A DNA stretch of 64,000 bases, taken from the NCBI GenBank assembly GCA_965222075.1, contig OZ244937.1:3200001-3264000 (forward strand), in the 5' to 3' direction. Of the stretch, positions 6,614-42,983 are shown in pieces. Within the stretch, counting starts at the first letter, position 1, and every line of letters starts with the position of its first letter. Position numbers and translations under genes: made by a program. The notes under the pieces are model-generated. The model was not told the DNA's origin. It saw only the letters and a program-made list of their open reading frames with translations, and made no database searches. The DNA is from Candidatus Latescibacterota bacterium (GTDB lineage: Bacteria > Latescibacterota > UBA2968 > GCA-2709665).

Positions 6614-6700
6614 GCCTTCGCTGCGGGGTTGAAGGGGCTTTTCCGCGCAGGTCCCCCCAGCACCATCGCCCAAAAACGCCCAAAAGGTCCGCAGGGCACC
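6614..6700. repeat. Dispersed structured repeat family A, partial copy
   Basis: Matches 8411-8498 (GCCTTCGCTGCGGGGTTGAAGGGGCTTTTCCGCGC...AAAGGTCCGCAGGGCA). Confidence 0.8.
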
Positions 6701-6898
6701 GGTACGATTGCCGTTAGCCTCCGCGAAACCGGTTTCGATGACAGAGGGTTTTTTTGGTAGGGGCGAGGGTGAAAAAGGCCTCGCCGAAGGCATGGGGACG
6801 GTGGGCGGGGAGGGATTGCGGATGACGGAAACCGCCCGAGACTGAGCGACAAGGCCCCCCCACCGGCGCGCCTGGGGGCTGACGCCCCTGGCTTGCCG

Positions 6899-6919
6899 AC
6901 TCCCCCTCAAGGGGGGAGT
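6899..6919. repeat. REP-like palindrome ACTCCCCCTCAAGGGGGGAGT
   Basis: Near-perfect inverted repeat in a repeat-rich convergent intergenic region. Confidence 0.55.
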
Positions 6920-6950
6920 GATGGGAGCCGCTTTGGCACGGACAGGATCG

Positions 6951-6984
6951 CCTGTCTATCTGCGTGCGAACACGCACAGGCAGG
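6951..6984. repeat. Small CCTG...CAGG palindromic element (reverse orientation)
   Basis: CCTGTCTATCTGCGTGCGAACACGCACAGGCAGG resembles the reverse complement of 8606-8641. Confidence 0.75.
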
Positions 6985-6997
6985 TATCCTGAAGTCA

Positions 6998-8275
6998 TCA
7001 AAACTCCGCAAGGCTCAAGCCGAGCCTGAGCGTGAATCCCCGTCTCAATTGCTCGCCTTCCACGAAACCGTCCGTCTTGTAGCCGATTTCGAGCGCAAGC
7101 TCCGGCGCTGGATTTCTCCGTGCAACCCGATAGCGGATCGTTCCCCACAGGCCCCCACCCCATCCCGATCTCCCGGTTCTCACATTTTGTCCACCGAGAA
7201 GAAGCGCGGGCTGATGCCACAGTTCAGCGCGTGGACTGAAGGTGATGTATTTCCTTGAAGCGAGATTGTCAACGGCGATTCCGAGTCCGCCGAATTGATG
7301 GAAGGCGGGAATCCCATATCGAAAGAACACGTTCATCACGCGCCCTGAGTGGATAATCAGGTTCTCAAAGATGACCTCGGAGCCAAACGGGCTCAATCCA
7401 AGGCGAAAGGACGGCAGATATCCAACCTGGCCGAACCGGACCATGGGGAGTTCGCACTCGTGCTCTCCGTGGTAGAGGTAAGGAACGAGATACGTATACA
7501 CCGCCCAAAACAGCGTGGGATTCAAGAGGTTGACCAGCAGCTGAGAGCTCAGGTCTTCCAGGGTTAATCTGTAAGGACTTCGGGAATGGTAGCCTTCGAG
7601 GGAATTGAGATTTCGCAGATAGTTGGTGATGTCATTTCCCGGCCTGGGACGGCCTGTGAACCTGGTTCGCAGGATGTACCAGCTCAGGTCCAACGATGAG
7701 AACAGATAGATGACGGTTTCCCGTGATTTCACGCGGCCGCGGTGAAGCCATTTGGATCGGACCGACTTCGACAGGATGGTGTTGGCTTCAGATCCTGCAA
7801 TCGTTGAGCTGATTCTTTCGTGCCAGGTCCCCCTTCTCTCCGGGTTGGGTGAGCCGTGGGCCCAACCGTTTCCTCTACCGTAGGGTGGGAACAGGCTGAG
7901 GTGATAGGAGATGTCCTGGTACCCAAACTCTCTGTAGCGGGCACCGTGTCCAAAGATTTCGTGTTGCGTTAAAACCGGCAAATGATCCATCACATTGTCA
8001 AGTAAGAAGGTCTTGCCCAAACGATAAAGCATCCCTGCTGACTTCCGGACTTTTGTCGTTTCATCGAACAGCCTGGATTTGAGGTACCGATCTTCCAGGG
8101 CGTAGACCGCGCGATGGATCGCGATCAGGTTCTCGGCGCCAATTGAGGGTGACCGCCACGCGTCAATCCCCACCATATATCTCACCTGTGCGATCGCCTC
8201 AGGCTGGTGACAGAAGATCGCGATGACAAGCATCCATGGAATTCTGAAAGCCTTCAAGCCTGGCAGGAGAAACAT
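6998..8275 (-). CDS. Hypothetical exported/outer-membrane protein with HEIFGH motif
   Basis: Signal-peptide-like N-terminus, HExxGH, amphipathic C-terminal strands ending in Phe. Confidence 0.65.
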   Translation of the reverse strand: MFLLPGLKAFRIPWMLVIAIFCHQPEAIAQVRYMVGIDAWRSPSIGAENLIAIHRAVYALEDRYLKSRLFDETTKVRKSAGMLYRLGKTFLLDNVMDHLPVLTQHEIFGHGARYREFGYQDISYHLSLFPPYGRGNGWAHGSPNPERRGTWHERISSTIAGSEANTILSKSVRSKWLHRGRVKSRETVIYLFSSLDLSWYILRTRFTGRPRPGNDITNYLRNLNSLEGYHSRSPYRLTLEDLSSQLLVNLLNPTLFWAVYTYLVPYLYHGEHECELPMVRFGQVGYLPSFRLGLSPFGSEVIFENLIIHSGRVMNVFFRYGIPAFHQFGGLGIAVDNLASRKYITFSPRAELWHQPALLLGGQNVRTGRSGWGGGLWGTIRYRVARRNPAPELALEIGYKTDGFVEGEQLRRGFTLRLGLSLAEF

Positions 8276-8335
8276 TTTATTGCCGTCCACGAAGGGATGA
8301 TTGTTGGCCAGGTTCTCCATGAGGGCGACTGCTTC
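8276..8335 (-). pseudogene. Doc/Fic toxin active-site remnant
   Basis: EAVALMENLANNHPFVDGNK matches the Fic motif HPFxDGNKR, cut just before R. Confidence 0.7.
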
Positions 8336-8404
8336 GGGGTGACAGTCAGAAACCGTCTAAAAATTCCGGGTTCGGGGATCAAAGCGCCCTCTCACGCGTC
8401 TCGC

Positions 8405-8770
8405 CTCCCCCGCCTTCGCTGCGGGGTTGAAGGGGCTTTTCCGCGCGGTTCCGTCCAGCACCATCGTCCAGCAACGCCTCAAAGGTCCGCAGGGCAGACC
8501 TGCCTGTGCCGCTTGCCTGCGCGTTGCGCGCAAGCAGGTGCCCGGCACGGCAGACAGGAGCTTCCGCTTCCACCACAGGGGCAATTCGCGGAAAAGCAGC
8601 CCCCGCCTGCCTGTGCGTGCTCTCTCACGCACGCAGACAGGCGGCGTCTGAGCGGCCTGCCTGTGCGCCTGCCTGTGCCGTTGGCACGGCAGACAGGTCG
8701 CACGCAGACAGGCAGGCAGGCGCCCTTCTTTTTCGGCCTTTTTCTTGGGCGAACAAGAAAAAGGCCATAA
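8405..8770. repeat. Repeat family A copy carrying three CCTG...CAGG insertions
   Basis: Collinear with 38885-39085 once 8499-8558, 8606-8641 and 8656-8720 are removed. Confidence 0.85.
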
Positions 8771-8889
8771 GCAAAACGTTGCAGATGAACCCTCACACGT
8801 GTCGGATTTCTTCTTTTCTATGTTTTGTCGTATATTATACCCCGACTGCGTAGTCAGGCACATAAGTCCCTTAAAACGAAACAACGCCC

Positions 8890-10134
8890 ATGACCCCCCT
8901 AAAGAGATTGGATATCGGCTGGCGCGACCTGCTCTTTGGCATGGCCCAATGCCTGGCGGTCGACAAGCGCGCAGAAATCCACGCGGCCTGCCAGGAGAGC
9001 ACGGCTGCACCCGATCAGGGCCTGTTTTTCCTCTCGGTCCGCAGCGGCTTTGACGCCTATCTACAGGCCGCCCAATTCCCCCCGGGGTCGCACATTCTGG
9101 TGTCCGCCATCACCATTCCCGACATGCTCGAAATAATCCGGGCCCACGATCTGGTCCCGGTGCCGGTCGATCTGGACCCGCTGACTCTGCAGCCCGATCC
9201 GGACAGCCTGGAAGGGGGACTCACCGACAAGACCGTCGCCCTGTTGGCGACCCATCTCTTCGGCGCCCGCATACCTGTGGACCCCCTGGTGCGCTTCGCC
9301 CGCCGCAACGGCCTGGTACTGTTGGAAGACTGTGCCCAGGCCTATTGGGGCGACGGCTTTACCGGCCATCCAGCCAGCCAGGTGCGTATGTTCAGTTTCG
9401 GTCCCATCAAGCACAATACCGCACTGGGGGGCGGCCTGCTCTTTGTCCGCGATGCCCTCCTGCGAGAAAAGGTACGGAGGCTCCAGCAAGGGTATCCCGT
9501 ACAGAGCAGGAGGCAGTTTTTCAAGCGCCTGGCCAAATACGGCATTGTTGTCCTGCTCAACAAACCGGGGCCCTATACGGTCCTGTGCGTCCTGTGCCGG
9601 CTGATGGGCAAGTCACACGATATTGTGTGCTACGGCGCCACGCGCAGTTTTATGGGGGGGGGACTGCTTGAGAAACTTCGCCAGCAGCCCTGCCAGGCCT
9701 TGTTGTCGTTGTTGTCGAGGCGCCTGCGCTCGGACGCCCTGGCGAGGACAGAGTGCCGGCAACGGGCGGCGGCGGCTTTTCGCTGCCACGCTCCGGACCT
9801 TTGCTGCCCGGGCCACGGGCCGCAGCACTCCCACTGGCTCTTCGCCGTCCGGGTCGGCAATGCCGAGGGCTTGTGCCAGCAACTCCGGGCTGCCGGCTTC
9901 GACGCCCATTTGTGGCCGCCGTCGCTGTGCGTTGTCCCACCCGACCGGGATCTCCACGACCAGGTGCCCACCGAGGTCTTGGCCCTGCAGCGGCAAATGC
10001 TGTTCCTGCCGGTGTATGCTGAAATGGGACAGGCTCGTCTGGATCTGTTGAGCCTCCTCGTGCGCCAATGGGCACGCTCCGGTGACGGCCGGCTATGTTC
10101 CTCTCACCTTCTCAAGTCTCCATCCGGGTTATGA
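8890..10134 (+). CDS. DegT/DnrJ/EryC1/StrS family PLP-dependent aminotransferase
   Basis: THLFG, EDCAQA, FSFGPIKHNTALGGG (PLP Lys). Confidence 0.85.
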   Translation: MTPLKRLDIGWRDLLFGMAQCLAVDKRAEIHAACQESTAAPDQGLFFLSVRSGFDAYLQAAQFPPGSHILVSAITIPDMLEIIRAHDLVPVPVDLDPLTLQPDPDSLEGGLTDKTVALLATHLFGARIPVDPLVRFARRNGLVLLEDCAQAYWGDGFTGHPASQVRMFSFGPIKHNTALGGGLLFVRDALLREKVRRLQQGYPVQSRRQFFKRLAKYGIVVLLNKPGPYTVLCVLCRLMGKSHDIVCYGATRSFMGGGLLEKLRQQPCQALLSLLSRRLRSDALARTECRQRAAAAFRCHAPDLCCPGHGPQHSHWLFAVRVGNAEGLCQQLRAAGFDAHLWPPSLCVVPPDRDLHDQVPTEVLALQRQMLFLPVYAEMGQARLDLLSLLVRQWARSGDGRLCSSHLLKSPSGL

Positions 10135-10157
10135 CGGGTTTTGGTTCGGTCTTTCCG

Positions 10158-11114
10158 TCAGCGGCCGAGCTCCTCCTGCAATACGGGCAGCAGATAGGCA
10201 AGGGCGACGCTGACGAGAAGGCCGGCGGTGATCTTTGCAAAGTCGGAGAGCAGCAGCCGGGACACCTCCTGACGGCTGCGGTGCCGCTCATTCCAGGCTA
10301 TGGCGATCTCGCGTCCGGCCAGGAGACCGACGAAGACCCAGGTCGTGCTCATCGGGATATGGCTGACCTCCTTGAACAGGAACAGCATGATGCCGTAGAT
10401 CAGGTCTACGAAGGTCGCCGAGCGGATGTCGGTGGTGTTCGTCTTCGTCAGCACCACCTTCTGGATGGCGCCGCCATGCGTATAAAAGATAATGGCGTAC
10501 AAGGCCAGCATAACGACAACGGCCATCCAGAACCATCCCCACGGCAGGTCGCGCGGCAGGAAGACGAAGATGTTGGCCAGATCCTGTACCAGCCACTGGC
10601 TCCAGAGGAAACCGGTGGAGCACCACTGAGCCACGACCCACCACGCACTCGCCGGGGCCTCCGTGGTGCGGCGGAAGCGGGACTCGAGTTCCCGGTTGAC
10701 CAACCTGTAGACGAGGATGGCGACCCCGAAGGCGGTCACATACCCCAGCAACGACTTGACCAGCATGCTCGACAGCGCCTTCGGCGCGAATATCGTCAGG
10801 GTCAGGAAGGTGGTGCTCACAGGGATGCCCGAGCGAGTCAGCAGGAGCAGGACAAAGGGCGGGACGCAGTAGATCCACGTAAAGCGCTCCGGAACGGGAA
10901 TCACCTGAAGTCTGCCGTAGGAGACGTCGCCGTGGGTCACCCACCCATAGGCGAGGACCGTCACCAGGATGGTGCAGGCAAAGATCCAGAGCACCCACCA
11001 CGGACGGTTGGCGTTGGAGCTGAGAAAGGTCCCCAGGGTCTGAATCGCGTCGTTGCCGACGATGGAATACGAGCCGAGCAAAAAGCCGACGATCATCAGG
11101 GCTTCTTGAGCCAC
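10158..11114 (-). CDS. Multi-pass membrane protein, PiT/PHO4-like permease
   Basis: GNDAIQTLGTF, PVSTT and PMSTT internal repeats, many TM helices. Confidence 0.65.
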   Translation of the reverse strand: MAQEALMIVGFLLGSYSIVGNDAIQTLGTFLSSNANRPWWVLWIFACTILVTVLAYGWVTHGDVSYGRLQVIPVPERFTWIYCVPPFVLLLLTRSGIPVSTTFLTLTIFAPKALSSMLVKSLLGYVTAFGVAILVYRLVNRELESRFRRTTEAPASAWWVVAQWCSTGFLWSQWLVQDLANIFVFLPRDLPWGWFWMAVVVMLALYAIIFYTHGGAIQKVVLTKTNTTDIRSATFVDLIYGIMLFLFKEVSHIPMSTTWVFVGLLAGREIAIAWNERHRSRQEVSRLLLSDFAKITAGLLVSVALAYLLPVLQEELGR

Positions 11115-11257
11115 GGTGGGTCTCCTTCGCTTAGTGGGGGTAGCGATTCATGGTGCCAGAGCTGGAGCGCGTCTGTCTCCTACGTGTTGCCGTCATTGTG
11201 AACCCCTTCCCTTACCGAAGCCGTATACAATGGCCGTTTGTATGTGCTTCCGGGGCA

Positions 11258-12508
11258 TCAACTCTCCTGAACCGCAAACTGCCGCCGGACCTGTCCCGTG
11301 CCGACGAATTGGGAGAGCAGGCGATAGTTGCCGCGCTCGTGGCGGACCCGGCCGGCGACGATAGCCGGATGGACCCCTATTTCATGGGCGATGTTGATAA
11401 CAGCCATTCCGGTCGGCGATTCGCGGACGACGCTCTCGTCCCAGGCCGCTTCTGGGACAAGGGCCTCTTCGGCCCATTGGTCGGCCTGGGCCTCCTTTGG
11501 GTTCTGTCCACTGTCCTCAACATCCCGGAGGGTGTGGTCGTCAACGAAGGCGGCCTCCCCGTCGCTGTCCATGTGTAGACCAACGTGGGCCAGCTCGTGC
11601 AGCAGGCAGAACCAGAAGTTGTCGATACGGTCGTACCGCAGGGTGAGGCCGATGACCGGCCTACCGCCAGCGAGACGAAGTGCCGCGCCGTCCAGATGCG
11701 TGCGGGGCAGATGGGGCACAACCTCAAGGGCGATGCCGCGCTTGGCCAAAAAGCCTTTGGCACGCTTGGGGCCGTCTTCGAATGGGCTGAGCTGTGCGAT
11801 CTGCCTTAGGAAATCCTGAGTCACAGTGCCGGGCTTGTAAGCGACGGCCAGCGGGTGATCGTTGGCGGTGGCCATCACCTGCCAACACCAGGCGCTGAGG
11901 GCGTACTCATCCGTCTTGGCGTTGATTCGACGGTGATCGTTCTTGTGATACAGCGGGGTGACAGCGACTTCCCGACCGCCGGCGCGCTCGATCAGACCGC
12001 GAATCAGTTCCTCAGCTCGGTCAGCCAGATCGGGGAGATCCGGAATCCACCCACACTTCGCCATGGCCTTCAAAGGAAACCTGTTTGGCTCGATGTCGTC
12101 GAACGTAAAGTCGAAAGCGGCGCCGGGCTCCTGGAGCAGGATGTCTGCGGATATGCCCAGGTGCTGGTGAAGCGCCCGTGCCATCGACATGGTAATCGCT
12201 CTCTTGCCAGACAGGACCTCCGAGACCTTGGCGCGGCTCCCGATGAAAGGAACGAGGTCGCGGGGAGTCATGCCGGTCTGGTCCATGTGGAATTCGATGG
12301 CCGCGATGGGGCTCGGAAGGCCGATCGGGTAGTGCCTGGACTCGTAGAGCTCGACGAGATCTACGAGGACATCGAGCTCTACTCTGTCGGGATGGTTTTC
12401 GTCCTCTATCTGTCCGTCTGGGCACGACAAGGCATCCATGAGCTCAGAGACCCGAGCCAGCGCTGCCTCGTAATCCTCCTCGGTGCGGATCGGGCTAACG
12501 TTCGCCAC
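11258..12508 (-). CDS. higA: HigA antitoxin (HTH) fused to ImmA/IrrE metallopeptidase
   Basis: PIRTEEDYEAAL, SRAKVSEVLSGKR, DNFWFCLLHELAH; GTG 12508 after GGAGG. Confidence 0.9.
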   Translation of the reverse strand: MANVSPIRTEEDYEAALARVSELMDALSCPDGQIEDENHPDRVELDVLVDLVELYESRHYPIGLPSPIAAIEFHMDQTGMTPRDLVPFIGSRAKVSEVLSGKRAITMSMARALHQHLGISADILLQEPGAAFDFTFDDIEPNRFPLKAMAKCGWIPDLPDLADRAEELIRGLIERAGGREVAVTPLYHKNDHRRINAKTDEYALSAWCWQVMATANDHPLAVAYKPGTVTQDFLRQIAQLSPFEDGPKRAKGFLAKRGIALEVVPHLPRTHLDGAALRLAGGRPVIGLTLRYDRIDNFWFCLLHELAHVGLHMDSDGEAAFVDDHTLRDVEDSGQNPKEAQADQWAEEALVPEAAWDESVVRESPTGMAVINIAHEIGVHPAIVAGRVRHERGNYRLLSQFVGTGQVRRQFAVQES

Positions 12509-12510
12509 TT

Positions 12511-12606
12511 CTAAACCTCCTCTGCGTTTATGCGGTTGTACTCCGCGTGCGTGCCGACGAACCGTATGTAGACCTGACGTCCAGGGTAGAAGATACGCAC
12601 TACCAG
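12511..12606 (-). pseudogene. higB: HigB toxin 3' remnant
   Basis: LVVRIFYPGRQVYIRFVGTHAEYNRINAEEV* directly upstream of higA; N-terminal part not found. Confidence 0.8.
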
Positions 12607-12871
12607 GAGAAACGGTTGAAGGCCGAGAAGGCGAATTAGCCTCTTTACGGGCCAACAGTTTCCGAGTCTTGGCGCCGGCCTGAGCGTTGCGGACGGATAC
12701 TGTCGTACAAAGAAATAGGGGCAACTCCCATTCGATGGTCTGTCGTTGCCCCGTATGTTGCCTCCGCTTGACCTCGGATGCCAATAGATATTCTTGGACC
12801 TCGTGAGACGCCTGATGTCGACTTCATACGTGATTTAAAACGAAAAGTAAGCCGTATAGGACATGATGAAT

Positions 12872-12948
12872 TGGTCGGGGCGGCGGGATTTGAACCCACG
12901 ACCCCCTGCTCCCAAAGCAGGTGCTCTACCGGACTGAGCCACGCCCCG
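12872..12948 (-). tRNA. tRNA-Pro(TGG)
   Basis: Cloverleaf CGGGGCG...CCTGC-TT-TGG-GA-GCAGG...GGTTCAAATCC...CGCCCCGACCA. Confidence 0.97.
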
Positions 12949-13049
12949 ACGTCATCTTGAACAACAGAAAATCAACCTGGATGAAACTGCCGTGGGAGGT
13001 CAAGATAAGCATAGCAGGGTCTGTTTTGCAAGTCTTTTCGGCAAACAGG

Positions 13050-13115
13050 CCTGCCTGCAGCGCCTGCCTGCGCGGCGCACCGCGCTGCAGGCAGGCAGAG
13101 CACTGCGCAGGCAGG
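13050..13115. repeat. Nested CCTG...CAGG palindromic elements
   Basis: CCTGCCTGCAGCG[CCTGCCTG...CAGGCAGG]CAGAGCACTGCGCAGGCAGG. Confidence 0.8.
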
Positions 13116-13179: not shown

Positions 13180-13648
13180 GTCACCCCGGCCCCAGGCCGT
13201 CCAGCGCATTCGCCTGTCCTTCCCGGACACAGGCGTATCCGTTGATACGAAAAAGGAGCTCCTCAACATAAAGTCGCGCATGCTCATGTCCCGGTAGCCA
13301 TAGGTCAGCCCTGCCCGTTCGTCCCACGCCGGGCCGAACAGAGTCGGCGAATGGATGGCGGGACGGCGCCCCGGACCTGCCTGCGGCGGCAGATCGCCGG
13401 ATAGATTCATCCGCTGACCACCCAGCGTCACATGCGAACCCCGCGCGGACGCCCCACCCAGCCGCTTGTCAACCGCTTCCAGAACGTGACTCGCCACTGT
13501 CCGTCCAAACCGCGCAAGCCAGGCCCTCGCGATGGATTGGAGCGAACCTCAGATCCAGTACCTGCCCCTCAAAAGGCTCCTGTTCCGCCGCAACGGTGGA
13601 TGCCAGACTCGTGAATGCAACCAATGAAAGAGACAGAATGCATTTCAT
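13180..13648 (-). pseudogene. Chimeric relic: duplicated signal peptide joined out of frame to an autotransporter-linker fragment
   Basis: MKCILSLSLVAF... as at 21939, then in another frame AWLARFGRTVASHVLEAV...RWTAWGRG. Confidence 0.65.
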
Positions 13649-13700
13649 CGAGATTCTCCTTTTCGTGGGTCGGGTGATGCAATCCCTGGTTTCATGAGAG

Positions 13701-16700
13701 CTACTTGAGATGCAGCACGCGCCGGGTCTGCACCCCGCCCGGATAGTGCAGGCGCACCAGGTACACCCCCGCGGCCACGGCGCCGCCGCGTCCGTCGCGG
13801 GCGTCCCAGGACACCCGGTAGGAGCCGGCGGCCTGCACCTCGTCCACCAGGGTGCGTATGCGCTGCCCGAGGAGGTTGTAGATCTCCAGGCGCACCGATC
13901 CGTCCGTGTCCAGACGATACGGGATGACGGTGTTGGGGTTGAAGGGGTTGGGCACGTTGGGCGCCAGGCCCGGCGGCCCGTCCGCGACCGCCGGCTTGGA
14001 CGCCGGCGTGATGTCGATGACCCGCAGCTCGTAGCCGCCCCACTCGAACGACTCGCCGCTCGCCGCGATGTAATAGGTGCCACCGGCATGGGCGTGAAAC
14101 GTCACCCGGAACAGGTGGTGGGAGCTTGATTCGTCGCGGGAAAACGTGTTGACAAGGAAGTCCCCGTCCGCATCGTAGATCGCGTTGATCTGCGGGAGGC
14201 GCAGGGTGAGATCGTTGGTGGGAGTCTTGCCCTTCATGTCGATCCGGTAGGTCCGGCCCGCCTCCAGCTCCACCGCGAACCAGTCGGTGTCGAAGTCGTA
14301 ACCCCTTTCCACGAAGACCGGCTTATCGATGGTGCCCCGGGCCGCGAGCCCGTCCACCTCGACCACGCCACTTGTGGTCGCGTTGGCGGGCAGGTCGGCG
14401 CCTTCCACGACGAAGATGTAGCCATCGTGGTCCCCGGGCAGAGACGGCTGGCTGGTGAGGTCAATGTCCACGGTCACCGGCGCGGTCGTCCCGGTCGTGC
14501 GGGTCACCGTCACTGGCGTGCCCTCCACCGAGCCGGCCGCCACCCTGAGCGCCGTCGCGCCGCCATCAAGCTCGCCGTTCGCCACCATCACCGGGATATC
14601 GACCGTGAACGGCGCCCCCGCCAGCACCTCCGCCCGCACCTGACGCACCTGATCGGACCCCACATTCTCCAGGGTCACGAGGGTCACGGAAAGCGGCAGC
14701 AGTTTGTCGGTGTTGGGGTTGTCGCCCAGTTTGAGAGTTGTCAGCGCCGTCAGGCCGGAGAACACGCCGTCGGGAAGCGACGTCAGATCGTTGTCGTACA
14801 GCCAGAGGCGCCCCAGCGCCGTCAGGTCGGAGAACACGCCAGCGGGAAGCTCGCCGAGCTTGTTGGACCGCAGACTGAGGTTCGTCAGCGCCGTCAGGCC
14901 GGTGAACACGCCGGCGGGCAGCGAGGTGAGTTTGTTGACGTTCAGATAGAGCCGCTCCAGCTCCGACAGGCCGGAGAACACGTCAGCGCGAAGCTCGCTG
15001 AGCGCGTTGTTGTTCAGCCGGAGCTCCGTCAGCGCCTCCAGGCCGGTGAACACCCCGGCGGGAAGCGAACTGAGCGCGTTCTCGCTCAGCCAGAGCGTGT
15101 CCAGCGCGGTCAGGCCGGAGAACACGTCAGCGCGAAGCTCGCTGAGCGCGTTGCTGTTCAGACTGAGGTTCGTCAGCGCCGACAGGTCGGAGAACAGGCC
15201 GGTGGGAAGCGAGACGAGCGCGTTGCCGTTCAGACTGAGGTCCTGCAGCGCCGACAGGTCGCAGAGCCTCCGGTCGGAGAACGCGCCGGCGGGAAGCTCG
15301 CTGAACTCGTTGCCGCTCAGATAGAGCGTCTCCAGCGCCTCCAGGTCGGAGAACACCCCGGCGGGAAGCGAGACGAGCGCGTTGTTGTTCAGATAGAGCG
15401 TCTCCAGCGCCTCCAGGTCGGAGAAATCACCCGGCTGCAAGGACCGGATGTCCTCATTCGCGAGATAGAGACCCGTCACGCCGGCCAGTTGCGTTGTCGT
15501 CACTTCGGCGCAGTTCTCCGTCACGCCTTTGATCGGTGGCTGCTTCATGATCTCGTTCCGCACCTGCTCCGTGCGGCCGCAGAAACCGGACTTCGGCGTC
15601 GCCGGACCCGCCTCCGCCGCGGCGCCGGCGCCGTCGATGTTCGCCGCGCGCAACTGGAAGGTGTAGGCCGTGTCGTTGGTCAGATTCTCCACCACGACCC
15701 AGTCCTCGTGGGCCTCGCCCGGCGCGCTGTCGTCGATCTCCGTCCACTCGGAGGGGTAGTCGCCCGTGGTCTTGAACCGGTACTCGTGGCGCGTGATGTC
15801 CGCGTCCGGCGCGTCCCAGGTGAGCGTTACCTGCTCGTTGCCGTTCGACGCGTTGAAGCCCTGCCGCGCGGGGGGTACGTCGCGCAGCTCGACCAGCTTG
15901 TCCGTCCCGCCGGGGCCGGACGGCGTGGCATGGCCGGGCGCGCCGACGGGATCGTCCTCCCCGTCCGGGTCGGCCGGGTCGTCGCCTTCGGCGGCCTCGG
16001 GCGCGGCGGGGGTGTCGATGTGGAACCAGCGGGAGCGTTCGCTCGTTCCGGCCCCGTTGATGGCCTTGATGCGGTAGGTGTAAGTGAGGCCGGCCGCCAC
16101 CGTGTCGTCGACGTAGGTGGTCGCGGCGCTTTCCGTGTCCGCCACCAGTTCACTGAAGTCGCCCCCGGTATCGTTCACGCGGACGCGCCGCAGGATGATG
16201 TAGCCGGTGATGCTGTCGTCGCCGGGGTCGTCCCAGGTGAGGACCACCCGGCCGTGGGTTGCCGTGGCGGAGAGGCCCTTGGGCTTATCGGGTACGGGGG
16301 CTGCCGGGGTGTCGATGTGGAACCAGCGCGAGCGTTCACTCGTTCCGGCCCCGTTGATGGCCTTGATGCGGTAGGTGTAAGTGAGGCCGGCCGCCACCGT
16401 GTCGTCGGTGTAGGTGGTCGCGTCGCTGCCCGTGTTCGCCACCAGCACACCGAACTCGCCCCCGGTGTCGTTCACGCGGACGCGGCGCAGGATGACGTAG
16501 CCGGTGATGCTGTCGTCCTGGGGGTCGTCCCAGGTCAGGACCACCTGGCCGTGGGACGCCGTGGCAGACAGCCCCCTGGGCTTGGCGGGCGGCCCCGCCC
16601 CTTGCTCCGGCGTCACGTCGGTCACGCTCAGCGTGTAGGTGCCCGTCTCGTTCCGGTCGCCCGACACCCGCGCGTAATAGGTCCCGCTCTGTGTTGGCGT

Positions 16701-17084
16701 GAACGTCACCCGGCTGTCTCGTCCGCCGTCGAAGTCGTCGTTGTAGCTGCCCGACTGGTAGCGCCCCTCGCTGTTGTAGATCGCCCGGAAATAGGTGTCC
16801 CGAAGCGTGCCGCCCCCGCCCGGGCGGCCCGTCAGGTCGAACCGGTAGGTCCGCCCCGCCACCAGCTCGACCGCGAACCTGTCCTGATCCTCAGGGATCC
16901 CGATGGCGCCCGTGGCCGAGCCCCCGACCGCGACGCGGCCGGGGGTGGTGTTGTCGTTGGGCAGGTCCACCTCGCCCTCCGAGACGCTCTGCAGCACCTC
17001 GTCACGCTCCTGCGCCTGCACCGTGGAGACAAGCATGCCGAGCACGGCCCCTGCCAGGGCCAGGATTGCGATGCCGCGAGTCAT
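13701..17084 (-). CDS. Secreted modular protein: PPC-like, 3x Fn3, LRR array, PPC-like, FlgD-Ig-like CTD
   Basis: Signal peptide, LTWD..Y Fn3 motifs, LxxLxLxxNxL repeats, APNVPNPFNP...YNLLGQ...GVY. Confidence 0.9.
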   Translation of the reverse strand: MTRGIAILALAGAVLGMLVSTVQAQERDEVLQSVSEGEVDLPNDNTTPGRVAVGGSATGAIGIPEDQDRFAVELVAGRTYRFDLTGRPGGGGTLRDTYFRAIYNSEGRYQSGSYNDDFDGGRDSRVTFTPTQSGTYYARVSGDRNETGTYTLSVTDVTPEQGAGPPAKPRGLSATASHGQVVLTWDDPQDDSITGYVILRRVRVNDTGGEFGVLVANTGSDATTYTDDTVAAGLTYTYRIKAINGAGTSERSRWFHIDTPAAPVPDKPKGLSATATHGRVVLTWDDPGDDSITGYIILRRVRVNDTGGDFSELVADTESAATTYVDDTVAAGLTYTYRIKAINGAGTSERSRWFHIDTPAAPEAAEGDDPADPDGEDDPVGAPGHATPSGPGGTDKLVELRDVPPARQGFNASNGNEQVTLTWDAPDADITRHEYRFKTTGDYPSEWTEIDDSAPGEAHEDWVVVENLTNDTAYTFQLRAANIDGAGAAAEAGPATPKSGFCGRTEQVRNEIMKQPPIKGVTENCAEVTTTQLAGVTGLYLANEDIRSLQPGDFSDLEALETLYLNNNALVSLPAGVFSDLEALETLYLSGNEFSELPAGAFSDRRLCDLSALQDLSLNGNALVSLPTGLFSDLSALTNLSLNSNALSELRADVFSGLTALDTLWLSENALSSLPAGVFTGLEALTELRLNNNALSELRADVFSGLSELERLYLNVNKLTSLPAGVFTGLTALTNLSLRSNKLGELPAGVFSDLTALGRLWLYDNDLTSLPDGVFSGLTALTTLKLGDNPNTDKLLPLSVTLVTLENVGSDQVRQVRAEVLAGAPFTVDIPVMVANGELDGGATALRVAAGSVEGTPVTVTRTTGTTAPVTVDIDLTSQPSLPGDHDGYIFVVEGADLPANATTSGVVEVDGLAARGTIDKPVFVERGYDFDTDWFAVELEAGRTYRIDMKGKTPTNDLTLRLPQINAIYDADGDFLVNTFSRDESSSHHLFRVTFHAHAGGTYYIAASGESFEWGGYELRVIDITPASKPAVADGPPGLAPNVPNPFNPNTVIPYRLDTDGSVRLEIYNLLGQRIRTLVDEVQAAGSYRVSWDARDGRGGAVAAGVYLVRLHYPGGVQTRRVLHLK
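16011..16585. repeat. Tandem 297-bp Fn3 duplication
   Basis: GGTGTCGATGTGGAACCAGCG at 16011 and 16308; near-identical domains. Confidence 0.85.
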
Positions 17085-17237
17085 CGCCGCGGCTCCGTTG
17101 CGGCCCCGAAAAAATCGGGGGGGGTGAACATTTGTGCCGGGAGCGGTTGCCCGGCCGGTGGTCGGTCGATTTCAAATGCATGTGAAATTCTCCTTTCATG
17201 AATGGCGGTTGAGGGCCGCCGCCGGCCGGCTCGGTCA

Positions 17238-17310
17238 CGGCCGAGAGGATGCGGTCGGTGGTGATCTCCTCGATCCCGGCCGAGAGGATGCGGTCGGCGG
17301 TGATCTCCAT
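17238..17310. repeat. 39-bp tandem repeat (2 copies), intergenic
   Basis: GGCCGAGAGGATGCGGTCGGYGGTGATCTCC twice. Confidence 0.75.
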
Positions 17311-17317
17311 GCAGGGC

Positions 17318-20300
17318 CTATTCCAGGTAGAGCATCCTCCGCGTCTGCACCCCGCCCGGATAGCGCAGGCGGATAAAATACACCCCCGTGGCCACGGCGC
17401 CGCCCCGTCCGTCGCGCGCGTCCCACTGCACCCGGTAGACGCCGGCCGATTGCGCCTCGTCCACCAGGGTGCGTACGTGCTGCCCGAGGAGATTGTAAAC
17501 GACCAGGCGCACCGGACCGTCCACGTCCAGGCGATAGGGGATGACGGTGCTGGGGTTGAAGGGGTTGGGCGCATTCGGCGCCAGGCCCGGCGGCTCCGGC
17601 CCGTCCGCGACCACCGGCTTGGACGCCGGGCCCGTGACGTCGGTCACGGACAGCGTGTAGGTCCCGGTCTCGTTCCGGTCGCCCGACACCCGCGCGTAAT
17701 AGGTCCCGCTCGCGGGCGCCGTGAACGTCACCCGGCTGTCTCGTCCGCCGTCGAAGTCGTCGTTGTAGCTGCCCGACTGGTAGCGCCCCTCGCTGTTGTA
17801 GATCGCCCGGAAATAGGTGTCCCGAAGGGTGCCGCCCCCGCCCGGGCGGCCCGTCAGGTCGAACCGGTAGGTCCGCCCCGCTTCGAGATCGACCGCGAAC
17901 CTGTCCTGATCCTTGGGGATCCCGATGGCGCCCGTGGCCGAGCCCCCGACCGCGACGCGGCCGGGGGTGGTGTTGTCGTTGGGCAGGTCCTTGCCGCCCT
18001 CCGAGACGCTTCGTCCCGTATCCTGGTCCTGTTCCTGAGACTCCTGCGCTTCTTCCGCCCGACCCCGCACCGTCGTCGAGATACCCTGCGACAGCGCCCG
18101 CCCGTCCTTCGTGCAGACCGCCGCCGGAGAGTCGCAGGCCGCCCCGGCCGCCAGCGTCACCGTCACGTCCGCCGGCGAGTCCGGCTCGACCGTCAGCTGC
18201 CACAGATCCCTGCGCCGGTTCACCCGACTGGCCTTCGTCGCCCGGCCCCCGGCCACCGCCACGACGTCCTCCCGCAACCGCCGGCCGTTCATCCAGCTGA
18301 GCGGCTCGCTGAACGCCATCCTGAGCGTGAACGCCGTCTGCCCGTCATGCTCCGACGGCACGCCCTCGAACGACGCCGTCAGCGGCTCTTGCTCCTCGCC
18401 ACCCGAATCGTCCGACGATTCCTCCGACACCTGTTCCTCGGAGGGCTCACCGCCACCCGAATCGTCCGACGATTCCTCCGACACCTGTTCCTCGGAGGGC
18501 TCACCGCCACCCGGATCGCCCGACGATTCCTCCGGCCCCGACACCACCGTCGAGATCCCCTGCGACAGCACCCGCCCGTCCGCCGTGCAAATCGCGCCCG
18601 TCTCGTCGCACGGGCGCCACGCCGCCAGCGACACCGTCACGTCCGCCAGCGAGTCCGGCTCGATCTCGATCTCCCACGCGACGGTCTTCCGGCCCTTCGT
18701 CCTGACCGCCCACCGAGCGAGCCCCCTTTCGCTCCGCACTGCCGCCCGACGGCACTGCCGTCCACCGGGCGCACCGACGTCACTTCGCCGCCCTCGACTT
18801 CCACGCCGCGCGCGCCCACGTTTTCGACCGCGTCGCTGAATCCCACACGGACCTTGATCGCCTTCGAACCGTCGTGCTGATCCGGCGGCGACGCGAACCA
18901 CGCCCGCAGCGGCATCCGCACCCCCTGCAGTTGGCTGGACGAAAGCTCCAGGAGATTAACCGCGTAGGTGCCAACGCGGTACGGCCGCGTGTCGGGGCGC
19001 TGGGTCCCAGAGACGTCGATGTGCCACGTCTGCTGCGCCCCGGTAAGCCCGCGCAGGTCGATGACGAAAGCCTGGAATTCTTCGCAGTCCCTGCCTTTGC
19101 TGGCCGTGTTCTGGGCAGATCTCCGACATGGTCACGCCGTCCACCCACGGCTTGCCCATGTTGTGATCGGTGTGGATCGACGGCGGATTTGCGCGCTTGA
19201 TTCGTGGCGTCGCGGCGGTCAGGACAGGGGCGGTTTCCTTGCCCACGACCCGCACTCGATAAGCCTTGCCCGGCTGCACCCGCAATCCGAACCGGTCTAC
19301 GTCTCCGTAGGTGTTGAGTACGACGTCGTCTGGCCCTTCGCCGGGACCAAAAGTAAGTTCCGACAGCCCGGGTTCGCTCTCCGGCACGAGTATGAAGTGG
19401 AATCGTCCCGCGCTCAGGTTCCCGCCATGCGAGATCTTGACCTGGTATTCGCCCTCGGCCTGCGTCGTGAATCTCGGTTTGAGCCCGTTGTTCGGTTCCA
19501 GCACTTCGTTCATGACCTCCGTGCTGAACGGGCCGGTCACGATCACCCGCGTCCCCCCTGAGATTCTGAACCGATAGCTCTCGTTCGCGTCCAGGTCGAA
19601 TCGGAACACCTTCTGGTCGGTGAACGAGTCGAGTGTCGAAACCACCGCGCCAAAATCGAACTCGCCCTGATCGGACTCCACCAGCCCCGGCGTCGTGGCG
19701 CTGACCACGTCGGACCAGGCGCTCTCCTCCTCGTCGTCCACCGCCTTGACCCGGTAGTGGCGCGTGGTCCCGGGCGTGATGGTGTCGTCGTTGAATCGCG
19801 TGGGGTAGCACGTGCACCAGATGTCGCTATCGGTCACGTACTGGTTCGTGACGTTCACGAGCGAGGTCCACGGCGCGTTGCCATCGGCGGACCATTCGAT
19901 CTTGTAGCCGTCGTCCCTATCGATTGTGCCTTTTGGAGACGGTAAGGTCCTGTCCCATCTGAGCGTGACCCGCATCGGCGCAACTGCGCGAGCGCTCGGA
20001 TTGGTCGGCGGGTCCAGGAGCACCTCACCCTTGACGTCGATTCGCATCGACTGATTGCTTGCTTGCCATGCACCGATCGAAGGCCTGTTTGTCCACGAAT
20101 CATTGTCGATGGTCCAATTCTCGCGGCCCCGTCGTCTTCGGCGTTGCCGCCGGAAAGGGGTCCGGTTACGGAAACGGCTACCCTGTCGCTCGAGGTCGTT
20201 TTGACCTGCACGAAGTAGGTTTTCGATGCCTCCAGCACGATGCCGCCGTCGGGAACGGTGAACACGTTGACTGCATCCTCAGTGATGCTCCCCGGGTTCT

Positions 20301-21001
20301 CCAGAGTCTTCAGTCTGCGGCCGGGATTGTCTTCCCCGCCCTCGTGCAATGTGACCTCCACGTCGTCATCGACTTCATCTCCAATCCCGATTCCGATTAA
20401 TGTGACCCGCGCCCAGGTCCCGGCCGTGAATGCTTGCGCACTTCGATGGCCATTTTCAAAAAGGTTCCTTTCGTTATCATCCAGGGAGGTGTTCTTTACC
20501 AGGGACGGCCCGCTGGCGTCCGTGATGCTGAGGTCCACGTCGTCGCCCAAAGACCAGGAGGGGCTGGACGACCAGGTGTAACGCCTGGAATTGGAACTGA
20601 CGCTGGCGTCCTCGAAGGCCAGCTCGGTATCATCGCCCACGTGCAGGGTCAGAAAGCTCGCGTACGTTCGCGGGAAGGGCGGTATCCAGAGTCAGTTCCA
20701 GCTCGCTGCCGTCGTCTTCGATCCTCGTGATTGTGTACGTGTTGCCGTGCAAGCTGATTTCGTCGTCGGATAGAACATTGGAGTTGGCGCACTGCCCATT
20801 AAAGGGGGTAGTGTGGGAACAACCGAATTCGTCCTGGGCGGCATTGAGGGTTTTCACCTCCAGGTCGGCGGACCAGATCGTCACGTCTTCCGCGGAGGCC
20901 GGCGGCGCGATGACGAGCGAGGCCGCGAAGAGGACGCCGCAGAGGGCCGCGGCGAGGGCGAGGCATCGCGGGAGCCGGGCCGGTTTGATGGCGCGAGTCA
21001 T
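17318..21001 (-). pseudogene. Multiply frameshifted secreted modular protein (signal peptide, Fn3, PPC-like, Ig-like repeats, FlgD-Ig-like CTD)
   Basis: Coding sense continues across shifts near 20654, 20122, 19114 and probably ~18750 and ~18680. Confidence 0.8.
18395..18532. repeat. 54-bp coding tandem repeat (~2.5 copies, EESSDDSGGGEPSEEQVS)
   Basis: Seen directly in DNA and protein. Confidence 0.85.
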
Positions 21002-21151
21002 GGCTGCGGCTCCGGTGCGATCCCAAAAAAAATCGGGGGATAGTGAACATTTATGCCGGTTGGTCGGATGTGCTTCGAGGCCATGGTCATGTCTCCATTC
21101 ATAGATGGCGAACAGCAGACAGCGGCGATTTCGATTGACCGATGACACGGG

Positions 21152-21939
21152 TCACGGTGTTTCTTCAGGGGTGGTTCGCGAACCGCCCCTACCGTACGCG
21201 GAAACAACCTGGATGATCGAGGCGAGGCTGGTGCCTGAGAAGGGATTGGACCCCGTTTCGGGATCCGCGACCTCGGGCGGAAGGACGTCGTCTATGCGTC
21301 TCACCTCCGCCACCATGGACCCCATGCCGGGGCGCCAGGTGAAGGTTTCCGGCAATATTCCCTCGCCCGTGATCCTCACGCCGAACGTGTGAGCCTTTTC
21401 TTCGCTGAAATTCACGGCCCCACCGCCCGAACGTCCCGATGCGCCGTCAAGCAGCATCAATTTCCGCGCGTCGCGCCAGTTCCCGGTGCTGAGCCGGTAG
21501 ATGTAGACCCCCGCGCTCACGCCCCGACCGACTGCGTCCGTGCCGTCCCACTGCGCCCTGTGAAACCCGGCCGGGCGCTCTTCGTCGATCAGCGTGACCA
21601 CGCGCTGGCCCAGAATGTTGAACACGTCCAGGCGAACGTGTCCTCCCTCCGAGATCTCGAAGGGTATGAGGGTGGAGGGATTGAACGGATTGGGATGATT
21701 CTGCAGCAGCGCGTTGGGTCGCGCGAGGTCTCCAGGGGCAGCGAGAAGGCGCCGTTTTCGTCCGTGATGGTCGTCACCCGGGCGCGCGGATTGTCGAGCC
21801 TGTAAAGCACGACCCGCGCCCGATGGATTGGAAGGGACTTCGGATTCACGACCCGTCCCTCAAACGGCTGCCGTTCCGCGGCAACGGTGGACGCCAGACT
21901 CGTGAACGCAACCAATGAAAGAGACAGAATGCATTTCAT
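21152..21939 (-). pseudogene. Frameshifted, probably truncated secreted protein with internal FlgD-Ig-like domain
   Basis: Signal peptide, TTITDENGAF, shift near 21720, then LLQNHPNPFNP...VFNILGQ; ORF ends just past a REP. Confidence 0.75.
21167..21192 (-). repeat. GTAG-type REP (GTAGGGGCGGTTCGCGAACCGCCCC family)
   Basis: Copies at 27421, 32685 and 36132. Confidence 0.85.
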
Positions 21940-21991
21940 CGGGATTCTCCTTTTCGTGGGTCGGGCGATGCAATTCCTGGTTTCATGAGAG

Positions 21992-23242
21992 CTACTTGAG
22001 ATAGAGCATCCTCCGGGTGTGCACGCCGCCCGGGTGGTGCAGGCGGATGAAATACACCCCCGTGGCCACGCCCGCGCCGCGTCCGTCGCGGGCGTCCCAG
22101 CGCACCCGGTAGGCGCCGGCGGCCTGCACCTCGTCCACCAGTGTGCGTATGTGCTGCCCGAGGAGGTTGTAAATGTCCAGGCGCACCGGGCCGTCCGTGT
22201 CCAGACGATAGGGGATGACGGTGCTGGGGTTGAAGGGGTTGGGCACATTGGGCGCCAGACCCGGCGGCTCCGGCTCGGACGCGACCGCCACCCTGGACGT
22301 GTCCAGCCGTTCGCTGGACACCACCCGCGCGCCACCGCCCAGAGTCAGCTCCAGGACCTGGCGCCGGTCGCGGTTGAGGGGAATGCTGTGCCATCGGCCC
22401 ACGATCGTACCCGCGCCGTTGCGGGCGCGGGCTTTGTAATAGCCGCTGGCTCCGCGCGGCTCCAGGCTGGAGATGGTCAGTGCCAGGCGGCCTTCGCTGT
22501 CGGTGACCTCGCTCCAGGCGTAGTGGGTCCAGCGGCCGGCGATGGCGCGCGCGAACTCGACGGTCAGGCCTTCGACCGCGTCGCCCAGCACCGTGGCCTC
22601 CACCACGGTCGACGACGACGCTGGTGGGGCTCCGGCTCTTTGCAGCTCCCACACGACTCCAGCCGCCGGGTCCCCCGCTCCGGCGGCGAATCGGCTCCGC
22701 CCGGGCAGCAGGAACACCAGCCTGTCGCCGGACTCGTAAGCGTACAGGTCGTTGAACAGTTCCAGGAAGAGACCGTTCACGAAGGAAAGGACGAGCTTGT
22801 ATTCCTCCAGCGCCCTGGCGTCACCGGAGCGCTGGAGGATCTCTTCCAAATCCTCGCCGTCTGCGAACAGCCTCAGGAAGTGGGCATTGAACCGCAGGGT
22901 ATCGGATTGCATGCTGTAATATCCGAACCCCGCGGCAGCCTTCGATGAAGGGAGAGGACTGGGAGCGGGCGGGCCGGGCAGGAAATGAGGAAAGGAATAC
23001 CCCTCCGCTGCCTCGGTGATGATGGACAGCTTGTAGTAGTTGCCTGCGTACAGCTCCAGGGTGACGGAGGACTCCGTGGGTATGGGTTCACCCCCTTCTC
23101 CCGCCTGGGACAGGATGGTTCCGACGTCGAACTTCAAACTGTTCCACACCAGCTCCCAGGTATCGAGAGGCCGGGGGTCGCCGGAGCCGGCCCACAGCGA
23201 AAGGGGATACATCACGGCAAGAGCGAGTATCAGTGGTTTCAT
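21992..23242 (-). CDS. Secreted protein with FlgD-Ig-like CTD
   Basis: Signal peptide, AGGAG RBS, APNVPNPFNPST...YNLLGQ CTD. Confidence 0.85.
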   Translation of the reverse strand: MKPLILALAVMYPLSLWAGSGDPRPLDTWELVWNSLKFDVGTILSQAGEGGEPIPTESSVTLELYAGNYYKLSIITEAAEGYSFPHFLPGPPAPSPLPSSKAAAGFGYYSMQSDTLRFNAHFLRLFADGEDLEEILQRSGDARALEEYKLVLSFVNGLFLELFNDLYAYESGDRLVFLLPGRSRFAAGAGDPAAGVVWELQRAGAPPASSSTVVEATVLGDAVEGLTVEFARAIAGRWTHYAWSEVTDSEGRLALTISSLEPRGASGYYKARARNGAGTIVGRWHSIPLNRDRRQVLELTLGGGARVVSSERLDTSRVAVASEPEPPGLAPNVPNPFNPSTVIPYRLDTDGPVRLDIYNLLGQHIRTLVDEVQAAGAYRVRWDARDGRGAGVATGVYFIRLHHPGGVHTRRMLYLK

Positions 23243-27351: not shown

Positions 27352-27420
27352 AATATTCTTCCTCCTTATCCGATTGCCGGTTTTGACCAACTCGCAAGCA
27401 CGGTGGTCACGGTGTTTTGC

Positions 27421-27446
27421 AGGAGCGGTTCCCGAACCGCCCCTAC
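27421..27446 (-). repeat. GTAG-type REP supplying the bEBP stop codon
   Basis: AGGAGCGGTTCCCGAACCGCCCCTAC. Confidence 0.8.
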
Positions 27447-32541: not shown

Positions 32542-32684
32542 CCTGTTCGCGTCCTTTCCGGGCTTCTCACGGAAGCGGGTGTACTGTCATCTGTCTCATT
32601 GCCAAACAAAAATAAGGAAATTCAGGCTTTGGACAAGGGAAATCAACCGATTCATGGATTGACCAGAGTTCACGGGTTTTTTTG

Positions 32685-32708
32685 GTAGGGGCGGTTCGCG
32701 AACCGCTC
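32685..32708 (+). repeat. GTAG-type REP
   Basis: GTAGGGGCGGTTCGCGAACCGCTC. Confidence 0.8.
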
Positions 32709-38845: not shown

Positions 38846-38884
38846 TTGGAAGATAGAACGCGTTTGCCGGCTCGGCTTCTGCGA

Positions 38885-39085
38885 CTCCCCCGCTTTGGTG
38901 TGGGGGGAAGGGGCTTTTCCGCGCGGTTCCGTCCACCGCCTTCGCCGCGTGAATCCATAAACGCTCGCAGGGCAGAAGCTTCCGCTTACACCCCAGGGGC
39001 TATTCGCGGAAAAGCAGCCCCCGCGGCGTTTGAGCGGCGCCCTTCTTTTTCGGCCTTTTTCTTGGGCGAACAAGAAAAAGGCCAA
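38885..39085. repeat. Repeat family A, uninterrupted copy
   Basis: GGGGCTTTTCCGCG...CGCGGAAAAGCAGCCCC long-range IR and GGCCTTTTTCTTG-GGCGAA-CAAGAAAAAGGCC hairpin shared with 8405-8770. Confidence 0.85.
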
Positions 39086-39169
39086 GAACAAAAGAACAGT
39101 TGAACCTGAGTATCTTACCGAAAGGCTATTTTCTAAACAGCAGTAGCTTCTATGGGAAAGGGTAGACGC

Positions 39170-41473: not shown

Positions 41474-41492
41474 GGTGTTGGCCCGCTTCCGG

Positions 41493-41643
41493 GCCTCCGA
41501 CTGTAGCGCAAACTGTTCGTTTGCGCAATAAGAACACGGGGGAATAGATATCACGTTCTTCTCACCCCCCCACAAACTGACAGTTTGTGCTACGACACCC
41601 CTCCCATAAACGGACAGCTTGTACTACGACCCGCTCGCTTTTT
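41493..41643. repeat. 151-bp direct repeat DR1 containing three GTAG REPs
   Basis: 3 mismatches versus 42833-42983. Confidence 0.95.
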
Positions 41644-41699
41644 GGAGGGTGTAACCGGCCCCGTTTTGGTCGATATATTCAGGGCAAGGAGTACGAGAA

Positions 41700-42871: not shown

Positions 42872-42983
42872 GAACACGGGGGAATAGATATCACGTTCTT
42901 CTCACCCCCCCACAAACTGACAGTTTGTGCTACGACACCCCTCCCATAAACGGACAGCTTGTACTACAACTCGCTCGCTTTTT
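42833..42983. repeat. 151-bp direct repeat DR2
   Basis: Copy of DR1; contains the RAYT stop codon. Confidence 0.95.

Follow-up and report, generated by a model that had tools for sequence, protein, structure and literature searches.

A self-nesting 27–36-bp hairpin that inserts without target duplication in a Latescibacterota chromosome segment and recurs across phylum-level groups

The DNA analyzed here is a 64,000-nucleotide stretch of contig OZ244937.1 (positions 3,200,001 to 3,264,000, forward strand; assembly GCA_965222075.1) from a Candidatus Latescibacterota bacterium, referred to as the window and numbered from its first letter. The segment is rich in GC, belongs to a bacterial chromosome and includes trp, aro and pdh genes as well as genes for LRR/fn3 proteins. 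It carries a short palindromic element, termed the unit, which folds as a hairpin between arms starting with CCTG and ending with CAGG. Eight units were counted in the window once inner units had been peeled out of nests. The pattern CCTGYCTG N5-30 CAGRCAGG (Y, pyrimidine; R, purine) matched five times, as compared to a mean of 0.01 in shuffled sequence, and 0 of 100 shuffles reached five. The DNA fold z-scores were -2.0 to -3.7 in all ten strands folded. For other genomes, GTDB was scanned with a pattern for the commonest subtype, which yielded at least 121 loci (L numbers); the counts given for these genomes describe a pattern-selected sample of the listed matches. Translations from a protein database carry P numbers. 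Junctions are written with a bar between the bases on either side, e.g., G|C. The units and the host repeat of three of the insertions, repeat A, are as follows:

6614..6698, plus strand: repeat A, partial third copy, ending just before insertion site 1 (89% identity to 8412-8496; self-BLAST)
6951..6984, minus strand: single 34-bp unit, the 30-bp type plus 4 nt in the right arm
8402..8776, plus strand: repeat A, filled, intergenic, with three insertions (self-BLAST and alignment with 38882-39093)
8499..8558, plus strand: insertion 1, 60 bp, at A|A; outer 33-bp unit (8499-8511 plus 8539-8558) enclosing an inner 27-bp unit
8512..8538, plus strand: inner 27-bp unit of insertion 1, at G|T within the outer unit (fold -9.4 kcal/mol, z -2.0)
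8606..8641, plus strand: insertion 2, single 36-bp unit, at G|C (filled/empty alignment and arm pattern)
8656..8720, plus strand: insertion 3 (65 bp, junction G|C), made up of a 27-bp outer unit (8656-8667 and 8698-8712), a 30-bp inner unit and a tail of 8 further bases
8668..8697, plus strand: inner 30-bp unit of insertion 3, at G|T (z -3.7); identical to a peeled outer unit in L066
13050..13115, unstranded: two nested units next to tRNA-Pro; the outer one (13050-13062 and 13096-13115) is 33 bp long and has symmetric arms
13063..13095, unstranded: inner 33-bp unit of this pair, at G|C (arm pattern; z -3.3)
38882..39093, plus strand: repeat A without insertions, located between tyrS and trpB; serves as reference for the three empty sites

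All eight units lie within the 6-kb stretch 6951-13115, beside tRNA-Pro (12872-12948, minus strand), and none was found in the other 58 kb; the same stretch includes a HigA-like HTH/IrrE gene (11258-12784). Four of the eight have identical counterparts elsewhere. The peeled outer unit of insertion 3 is identical to units in 11 listed loci and that of insertion 1 to a unit in L017; the outer unit at 13050 is identical to that of L039, whose inner unit at the same position differs, and the fourth is the inner unit shared with L066. Insertion 2 is one base off units in the Latescibacterota loci L040 and L116. The original prediction, made from the letters of the window, had described nested CCTG...CAGG palindromes at these positions, and the inner units at 8512, 8668 and 13063 were all present. 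It needs correction in that the unit at 8512-8538 has variant arms (CTTG.../...CAAG), with no identical copy among the listed loci, and insertion 3 ends in the 8 extra right-arm bases 8713-8720. These bases recur in P0003, P0011 and P0012, and may be left over from an earlier outer unit or reflect a register slip of 4 bases. The further copy it had listed at 6951 was also found, but it lies on the minus strand and exceeds its closest relatives by 4 nt. Just before this copy, at 6890-6950, another palindromic repeat and an apparent decayed right half of a unit were seen.

Repeat A is a multi-copy intergenic element of about 210 bp that contains inverted repeats and ends in an A/T-rich hairpin. 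In translated form it was found in the protein records P0002, P0004, P0011 and P0012, but in none of the 121 listed GTDB loci. Alignment of 8395-8790 with 38875-39105 revealed three internal gaps of 60, 36 and 65 bp, which confirmed all predicted insertion coordinates; the empty junctions are 38976|38977, 39023|39024 and 39037|39038. At site 1 the A|A junction does not allow the boundaries to slide, and this is the sole unambiguous site within the window. At sites 2 and 3 the junction is G|C, and MAFFT slides the gap there. Taken alone, these two sites could formally be read just as well as a shorter unit flanked by a 2-bp duplication of GC. Thus, the window by itself leaves the question of duplication unsettled.

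Filled and empty sites were also compared in other genomes. For the 122 sites not inside another unit, the flanks were joined by script, and an empty version was sought in all loci and the window at offsets of -4 to +4, with a threshold of 24 of 28 matches. Threshold was reached by 23 sites, of which three self-hits (L024, L053 and window 6951) were dropped, leaving 20 independent filled/empty pairs. Offset zero was best in 19 of these 20 pairs, the exception being L020 at -1, and the inserted block was a single hairpin of 19-36 bp. Offset-zero pairs include G|T, G|G and A|C junctions, at which a GC-duplication reading fails. Flank duplications of 5 bp or more were absent from all 122 sites, and matches of 1, 2, 3 and 4 bp were seen in only 17, 8, 3 and 2 of them. 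When the terminal bases were left free, the last base was G in all 30 matches outside the scan selection, some of which are longer parses of selected units; since this includes matches following an A, a 1-bp duplication is ruled out. The zero offset in 19 of 20 pairs likewise rejects both deletion and ordinary target duplication. Thus, the absence of a duplicated flank, as originally predicted, is borne out by site 1 and by these pairs, but not by sites 2 and 3 alone.

The 122 pattern-matched units are joined to their flanks at G|C (58), G|T (28), G|G (13), A|C (6), A|T (5), G|A (4) and other (8) junctions, so that the target was G|C or G|T in 86. The base preceding the unit was G in 103 sites, as TG (44), CG (34), GG (17) or AG (8); the predicted position "usually just after CG" was too narrow. 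As compared to these 103, the base following the unit was C in 67 of 122, i.e., the target is strand-asymmetric (p 1e-5). Target information is confined to positions -1 and +1 (1.12 and 0.43 bits), and the commonest 4-mer occurred in 7 of 125. Targets are not palindromic beyond the central pair, and no preference for hairpins was detected (-5.5 kcal/mol for reconstituted empty sites versus -5.2 kcal/mol for nearby G|Y controls). These data show that the unit enters as an exact block, with a purine (in most cases G) before it and a pyrimidine after it, and without target duplication.

Intermediate states of repeat A were found in the translated records. P0004 has an insert of 11 residues at site 1 that lacks exactly the 9 residues of the inner unit, while its sites 2 and 3 are empty. 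P0002, P0011 and P0012 lack site 1, and units are present in their site 2-3 region. Because of these intermediate fill states and the empty hosts in other genomes, stepwise insertion is far more parsimonious than deletion. Among the 157 units of the listed loci, 15 outer units became visible on peeling. The outer unit of the 13050 type is also present in L039, L077 and L017, where other inner units occupy this position, which suggests a hot spot for insertion within it. In P0003, an outer-membrane protein contains the outer-plus-inner pair seen at site 3, and the composite may therefore move as one block. Thus, units land in other repeats, in genes and in their own copies, and they accumulate stepwise. 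The original description of a minimal, self-nesting mobile hairpin without a GTAG/GTGG foot is supported by the CCTG starts, the precise junctions and the nests; target duplications, ragged ends or an origin of the 38885 copy by deletion, which would have spoken against it, were not found.

The unit consists of an 8-bp basal stem (CCTGCCTG with CAGRCAGG), a one-sided bulge of 2-3 nt and a short upper stem-loop of variable size, which grows in steps that preserve a multiple of three. Unit length was a multiple of three in 104 of 122 units: 27 bp (57), 30 bp (36), 33 bp (7), 36 bp (3) and 39 bp (1, a degenerate nest), and the other 18 units measure 26, 28 or 29 bp. The rule also holds for 45 of 55 distinct sequences and for 98 of 116 when one unit per locus is counted; it is strong for units with a 2-nt bulge (94 of 106). 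Stop triplets on either strand are present in only 8 of the 55 distinct units. Shorter relatives of 19-24 bp with the same arms were seen in L011 (1067-1087), L027 (3095-3113), L029 (30-49), L066 (4701-4721) and L075 (2051-2074); two of these five are not multiples of three, and the family may include a short class that is not codon-phased.

In-frame insertions within genes were found at several loci. The unit corresponds exactly to a 10-residue gap in an IS1380 transposase alignment (L105) and to a 9-residue gap in an IS256 transposase alignment (L121), while at a second IS256 site of L121 (site 1) the gap was of 4 residues only, in comparison with a homologue of just 37% identity. A unit adds 9 residues at the N-terminus of HemL (L014), and in L071 a nested block separates the OB domain from the helicase domain of a RecJ of 958 residues. 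Units are located in the tails of two IS91-type transposases (L037, L042) and in a gene remnant (L118), which we take to be a RAYT, whereas in L106 a unit of 29 bp causes a frameshift in an IS91-type gene. Many of the genic matches are thus in transposase genes (L037, L042, L106, L105, L121 and L118), three of them IS91-type, which may reflect dispensable DNA or single-strand exposure.

The listed loci span about 18 phylum-level groups, as assigned from record titles, and one archaeal bin. The groups include Latescibacterota, Thermodesulfobacteriota, Planctomycetota, Verrucomicrobiota, Nitrospirota, Pseudomonadota, Bacillota, Spirochaetota and Patescibacteria. One Methanosarcinales bin (L119, 301-327) and one Kaiserbacteria bin (L111, 301-333) each have a unit; since nearly all listed loci are metagenome-assembled, such single contigs may be misbinned. 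An identical 27-mer is shared by at least 21 loci from many phyla and the archaeal bin, with misbinning of individual contigs being possible. The contigs come from many unrelated projects and include multi-megabase chromosomes. The 55 distinct unit sequences comprise lineage-typical variants with compensating stem changes, and among the listed loci the nearest 33- and 36-bp variants belong to Latescibacterota. Neither the window cluster nor a common 30-mer had an exact copy in plasmid and phage collections, where only chance matches were obtained. A profile-free search of the translated cluster against 1.84 billion representatives returned five unrelated repeat proteins only, and the frame of L098 had no PDB match. 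The multiple-of-three rule, the in-frame insertions into genes and the spread across phyla go beyond the original prediction.

As to how the unit moves, we lean slightly towards a non-autonomous single hairpin that is mobilized in trans by single-strand cut-and-join chemistry, probably of the HUH type. An enzyme encoded elsewhere in the genome would recognize the folded strand and cut at G|C at both feet. Since the unit begins with C and ends with G, both of its junctions and the joint of the excised circle would read G|C, and because all joints would read alike, a single type of cut-and-join reaction would suffice to excise the unit and to place it at a G|Y target with no base lost or gained, as is the case for IS200/IS605 transposases, HUH enzymes that form a single-stranded circular intermediate. 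The most likely enzyme class would be a Y1-like single-strand transesterase of the HUH group, which is consistent with the junction logic, the absent duplication, the one-sided bulge and the strand-asymmetric target. The first three of these features correspond to single-strand HUH transposition as known from IS200/IS605 and TnpA-REP (PMC3333891, PMC8266576, PMC6006769). The enzymes of repetitive extragenic palindromes (REPs) and of IS200/IS605 tell the strands apart by a one-sided hairpin bulge (PMC8266576), and IS200/IS605 elements have no flanking repeats (PMC3333891).

Several observations weigh against this proposal. The TnpA-REP enzymes tested cut at C|T or C|A rather than G|Y (PMC8266576), and enzymes of the IS608 type cut away from the hairpin by means of a guide 5' of the foot (PMC3333891), whereas the ends of the unit are the hairpin foot itself. 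Pfam scans of 213 of the 225 open reading frames (ORFs) within 500 bp of units in long loci revealed no Y1_Tnp or GIY-YIG family, and a motif scan of 4632 ORFs detected no GIY-YIG motif and a Y1 motif only in the REP-associated tyrosine transposase (RAYT) of the window. The distance of this RAYT from the nearest unit is about 29 kb, seven GTAG REPs flank it, and its 120 best relatives contain no unit-derived peptide beyond isolated 5-mers. Unit orientation was not biased relative to local GC skew (30 of 54 loci, p 0.5), which was calculated over 8-20 kb and is a noisy proxy for the lagging-strand template preferred by IS200/IS605 elements, nor relative to gene direction (9 same, 8 opposite). 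Moreover, the excess of lengths divisible by three is weaker in the subtype with a 3-nt bulge (10 of 16), and most sampled units are intergenic. The length rule and the scarcity of stop triplets would persist because in-frame insertions into genes are tolerated; this tolerance would explain the rule most simply, but it is unproven because most of the sampled copies lie between genes. The HUH/Y1 link of the original prediction is thus retained as a proposal on the strength of the junctions and of the bulged, strand-asymmetric hairpin, but not by a cognate enzyme beside the units or a strand bias.

The enzyme moving the unit may also belong to another class, an explanation that is possible but doubtful. 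A tyrosine recombinase could act on the bulged single-strand hairpin as on an integron attC site, and the G or GC core shared by both junctions would be the trace of such a site-specific recombinase; the target is indeed loosely symmetric, being pyrimidine-rich before and purine-rich after the junction. Integron integrases use GNT secondary sites, whereas the second base beyond the junction of the units was T in just 8 of 122 sites. In a variant of this explanation, a small nuclease (GIY-YIG or PD-(D/E)xK) would cut the target, followed by repair from an existing copy, and many host repeats are presumably of types that adjoin small nucleases. However, the 213 neighboring ORFs include neither a recombinase nor a GIY-YIG protein and only two PD-(D/E)xK matches, and repair-based copying would rarely yield such exact ends. 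Spread via an RNA copy and reverse transcriptase would agree with the hairpin fold and with the many copies in or near transcribed DNA, but it is improbable given the lack of orientation bias relative to neighboring genes, junctions without truncated 5' ends or tails, the absence of a reverse transcriptase among the same 213 ORFs and the lack of an Rfam family.

A classical miniature inverted-repeat transposable element (MITE), i.e., a shorter CTG...CAG element with terminal inverted repeats whose DDE transposase duplicates GC (or G), would read formally identically at the 58 G|C junctions, window sites 2 and 3 being of this type. This is very unlikely, as the other 64 of the 122 junctions are not G|C and yet show full CCTG and CAGG ends, as the empty sites at G|T, G|G and A|C junctions fit offset zero and window site 1 is A|A, and as the terminal G is retained where the preceding base is A. 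It is hardly credible that the units are an artefact, such as a library adapter or an assembly error, or that the 38885 copy was emptied by deletion. Nearly all matches being metagenome-assembled and the plasmid and phage collections being devoid of exact copies would fit an artefact, but not the variety of distinct sequences with their lineage-typical variants and compensating stem changes, the nested and decayed copies, or the many unrelated projects with multi-megabase chromosomes. Deletion is countered by the empty hosts and intermediate fill states in other genomes, and three exact deletions of self-contained units within one 210-bp repeat are not parsimonious.

The search for the mobilizing enzyme gave no candidate family. 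All-against-all clustering of the 4632 ORFs from the loci revealed no family near the units, and among the 213 neighboring ORFs neither a recurring Pfam family nor any enrichment for Y1 or GIY-YIG genes, as considered in the original prediction, was observed; the 561 more distant small ORFs were checked by motif and with the RAYT as query only. This negative result is weak because a single gene per genome would usually be missed by 0.94 Mb of scattered flanks. The RAYT-like Y1 protein of the window (42104-42871; NF047646, E 5e-15, below the curated cut-off) was rejected as cognate enzyme in view of its own GTAG REPs, its distance and its relatives without unit peptides; named relatives are from Latescibacteria and Poribacteria. 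Its gene is located within 41489-42983 between two 155-bp direct repeats (97% identical) with three GTAG REPs in each; the seventh is part of the coding sequence and in frame, an arrangement described for subclass 2.4. What appears to be a small toxin-antitoxin-like pair is placed between the left repeat and the gene. An idea that bases of the right arm guide target choice by pairing was dropped because units with symmetric arms also occur at A|C and A|T sites.

In comparison with known systems, the unit resembles the REPs of TnpA-REP (RAYT) proteins, which according to PMC6006769, PMC8266576 and PMC3333891 are imperfect hairpins of 20-40 nt with a one-sided bulge and many copies, mostly intergenic and sometimes in frame within genes. 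Unlike REPs, units begin with CCTG, lack a GT(A/G)G foot and a conserved flanking tetranucleotide, and have junctions of G|C on the left and G|Y on the right of one strand (R|C and G|C on the other), not C|T. Furthermore, the inserted unit is a single hairpin rather than a pair, and no flanking RAYT was found among the 213 neighboring ORFs, which come from a small sample of loci. A motif search of the REP tables of PMC6006769, including Table S1, found no such unit. REPINs, likewise, are non-autonomous palindromic replicators relying on an enzyme in trans, but according to two preprints they consist of paired inverted REPs with a spacer, are lineage-bound, vertically inherited and reported absent from archaea, and REP singlets are considered immobile remnants (10.1101/2021.07.10.451892, 10.1101/2022.05.22.493013). 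Here, singlets are the mobile form, and the identical 27-mer is shared across many phyla and one archaeal bin.

With IS200/IS605, as described in PMC3333891 and PMC6006769, the unit shares precise insertion without flanking repeats, strand asymmetry and an element 3' end resembling the 5' flank of the target. However, it is one terminal hairpin whose feet are its ends, whereas IS200/IS605 elements have two subterminal hairpins with guide sequences and a distant cut; its target comprises about 2 bases versus 4-5, and no autonomous partner was found. MITEs of the DDE class differ by their target-site duplication. CGTC-tagged repeats and Rickettsia palindromic elements are, according to PMC3733652, similarly palindromic, without a known dedicated transposase and present inside protein-coding genes; the former differ in sequence and by an unpaired CGTC tag that units lack, and the unit arm motifs are absent from the text and supplements of that paper. 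IS91-type genes were encountered only as unit targets (L037, L042, L106). Helitron and IS91-type rolling-circle elements have an HUH enzyme and insert between two specific bases without target duplication, but units are far smaller and have no distinct origin and terminator ends. No Rfam family matched the units at the gathering threshold: in the window only tRNA was detected, and a further comparison gave one chance match at E 0.88. No prior description of the unit was found in the literature searched, a search to which subscription journals and insertion sequence databases were external. Taken together, the unit works like a non-autonomous hairpin of the IS200/IS605 or REP type, yet it lacks the defining features of REPs, REPINs, IS200/IS605 derivatives and MITEs.

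Some further features of the window were recorded. A 440-residue ORF on the minus strand (6998-8320) adjoins the cluster of units; it has no Pfam or NCBIfam match, and its Atlas neighbors are unnamed clusters from Acidobacteriota and Bacteroidota. The start of this ORF presumably resembles a Fic fragment. Several paralogous repeats of 300-480 bp are found at 13530-22299 among genes for LRR/fn3/FlgD-Ig surface proteins. A second family of short palindromic repeats with a GTAG/CTAC foot has four intergenic copies (21150-21192, 27405-27446, 32684-32708 and 36129-36158).

It is possible, though on balance unlikely, that all of these properties belong together, namely, that one hairpin of 27-36 bp, in phase with codons, is cut out and placed at G|Y sites by a family of enzymes so far not recognized as transposases, is shared nearly unchanged across about 18 bacterial phyla and possibly archaea, and adds peptides of 9-12 residues to proteins in frame. 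The unit would then be among the smallest mobile DNA units of prokaryotes.

The unit bears on how short palindromic repeats originate and spread. To our knowledge, the insertion step of REPs has been inferred rather than read from clean filled/empty pairs. In the unit family, the junctions are exact, the target rule covers two bases, intermediates reveal stepwise filling and the substrate is clear; thus, its mobilizing enzyme can be searched for by co-occurrence and assayed with oligonucleotides of 30-40 nt. An enzyme that places a short hairpin at G|Y without leaving a scar would be interesting for its mechanism and possibly as a tool. The units place short in-frame peptides in real proteins, such as HemL, RecJ, transposases and an outer-membrane protein, and they also create spurious ORFs, which matters for the annotation of uncultured lineages.

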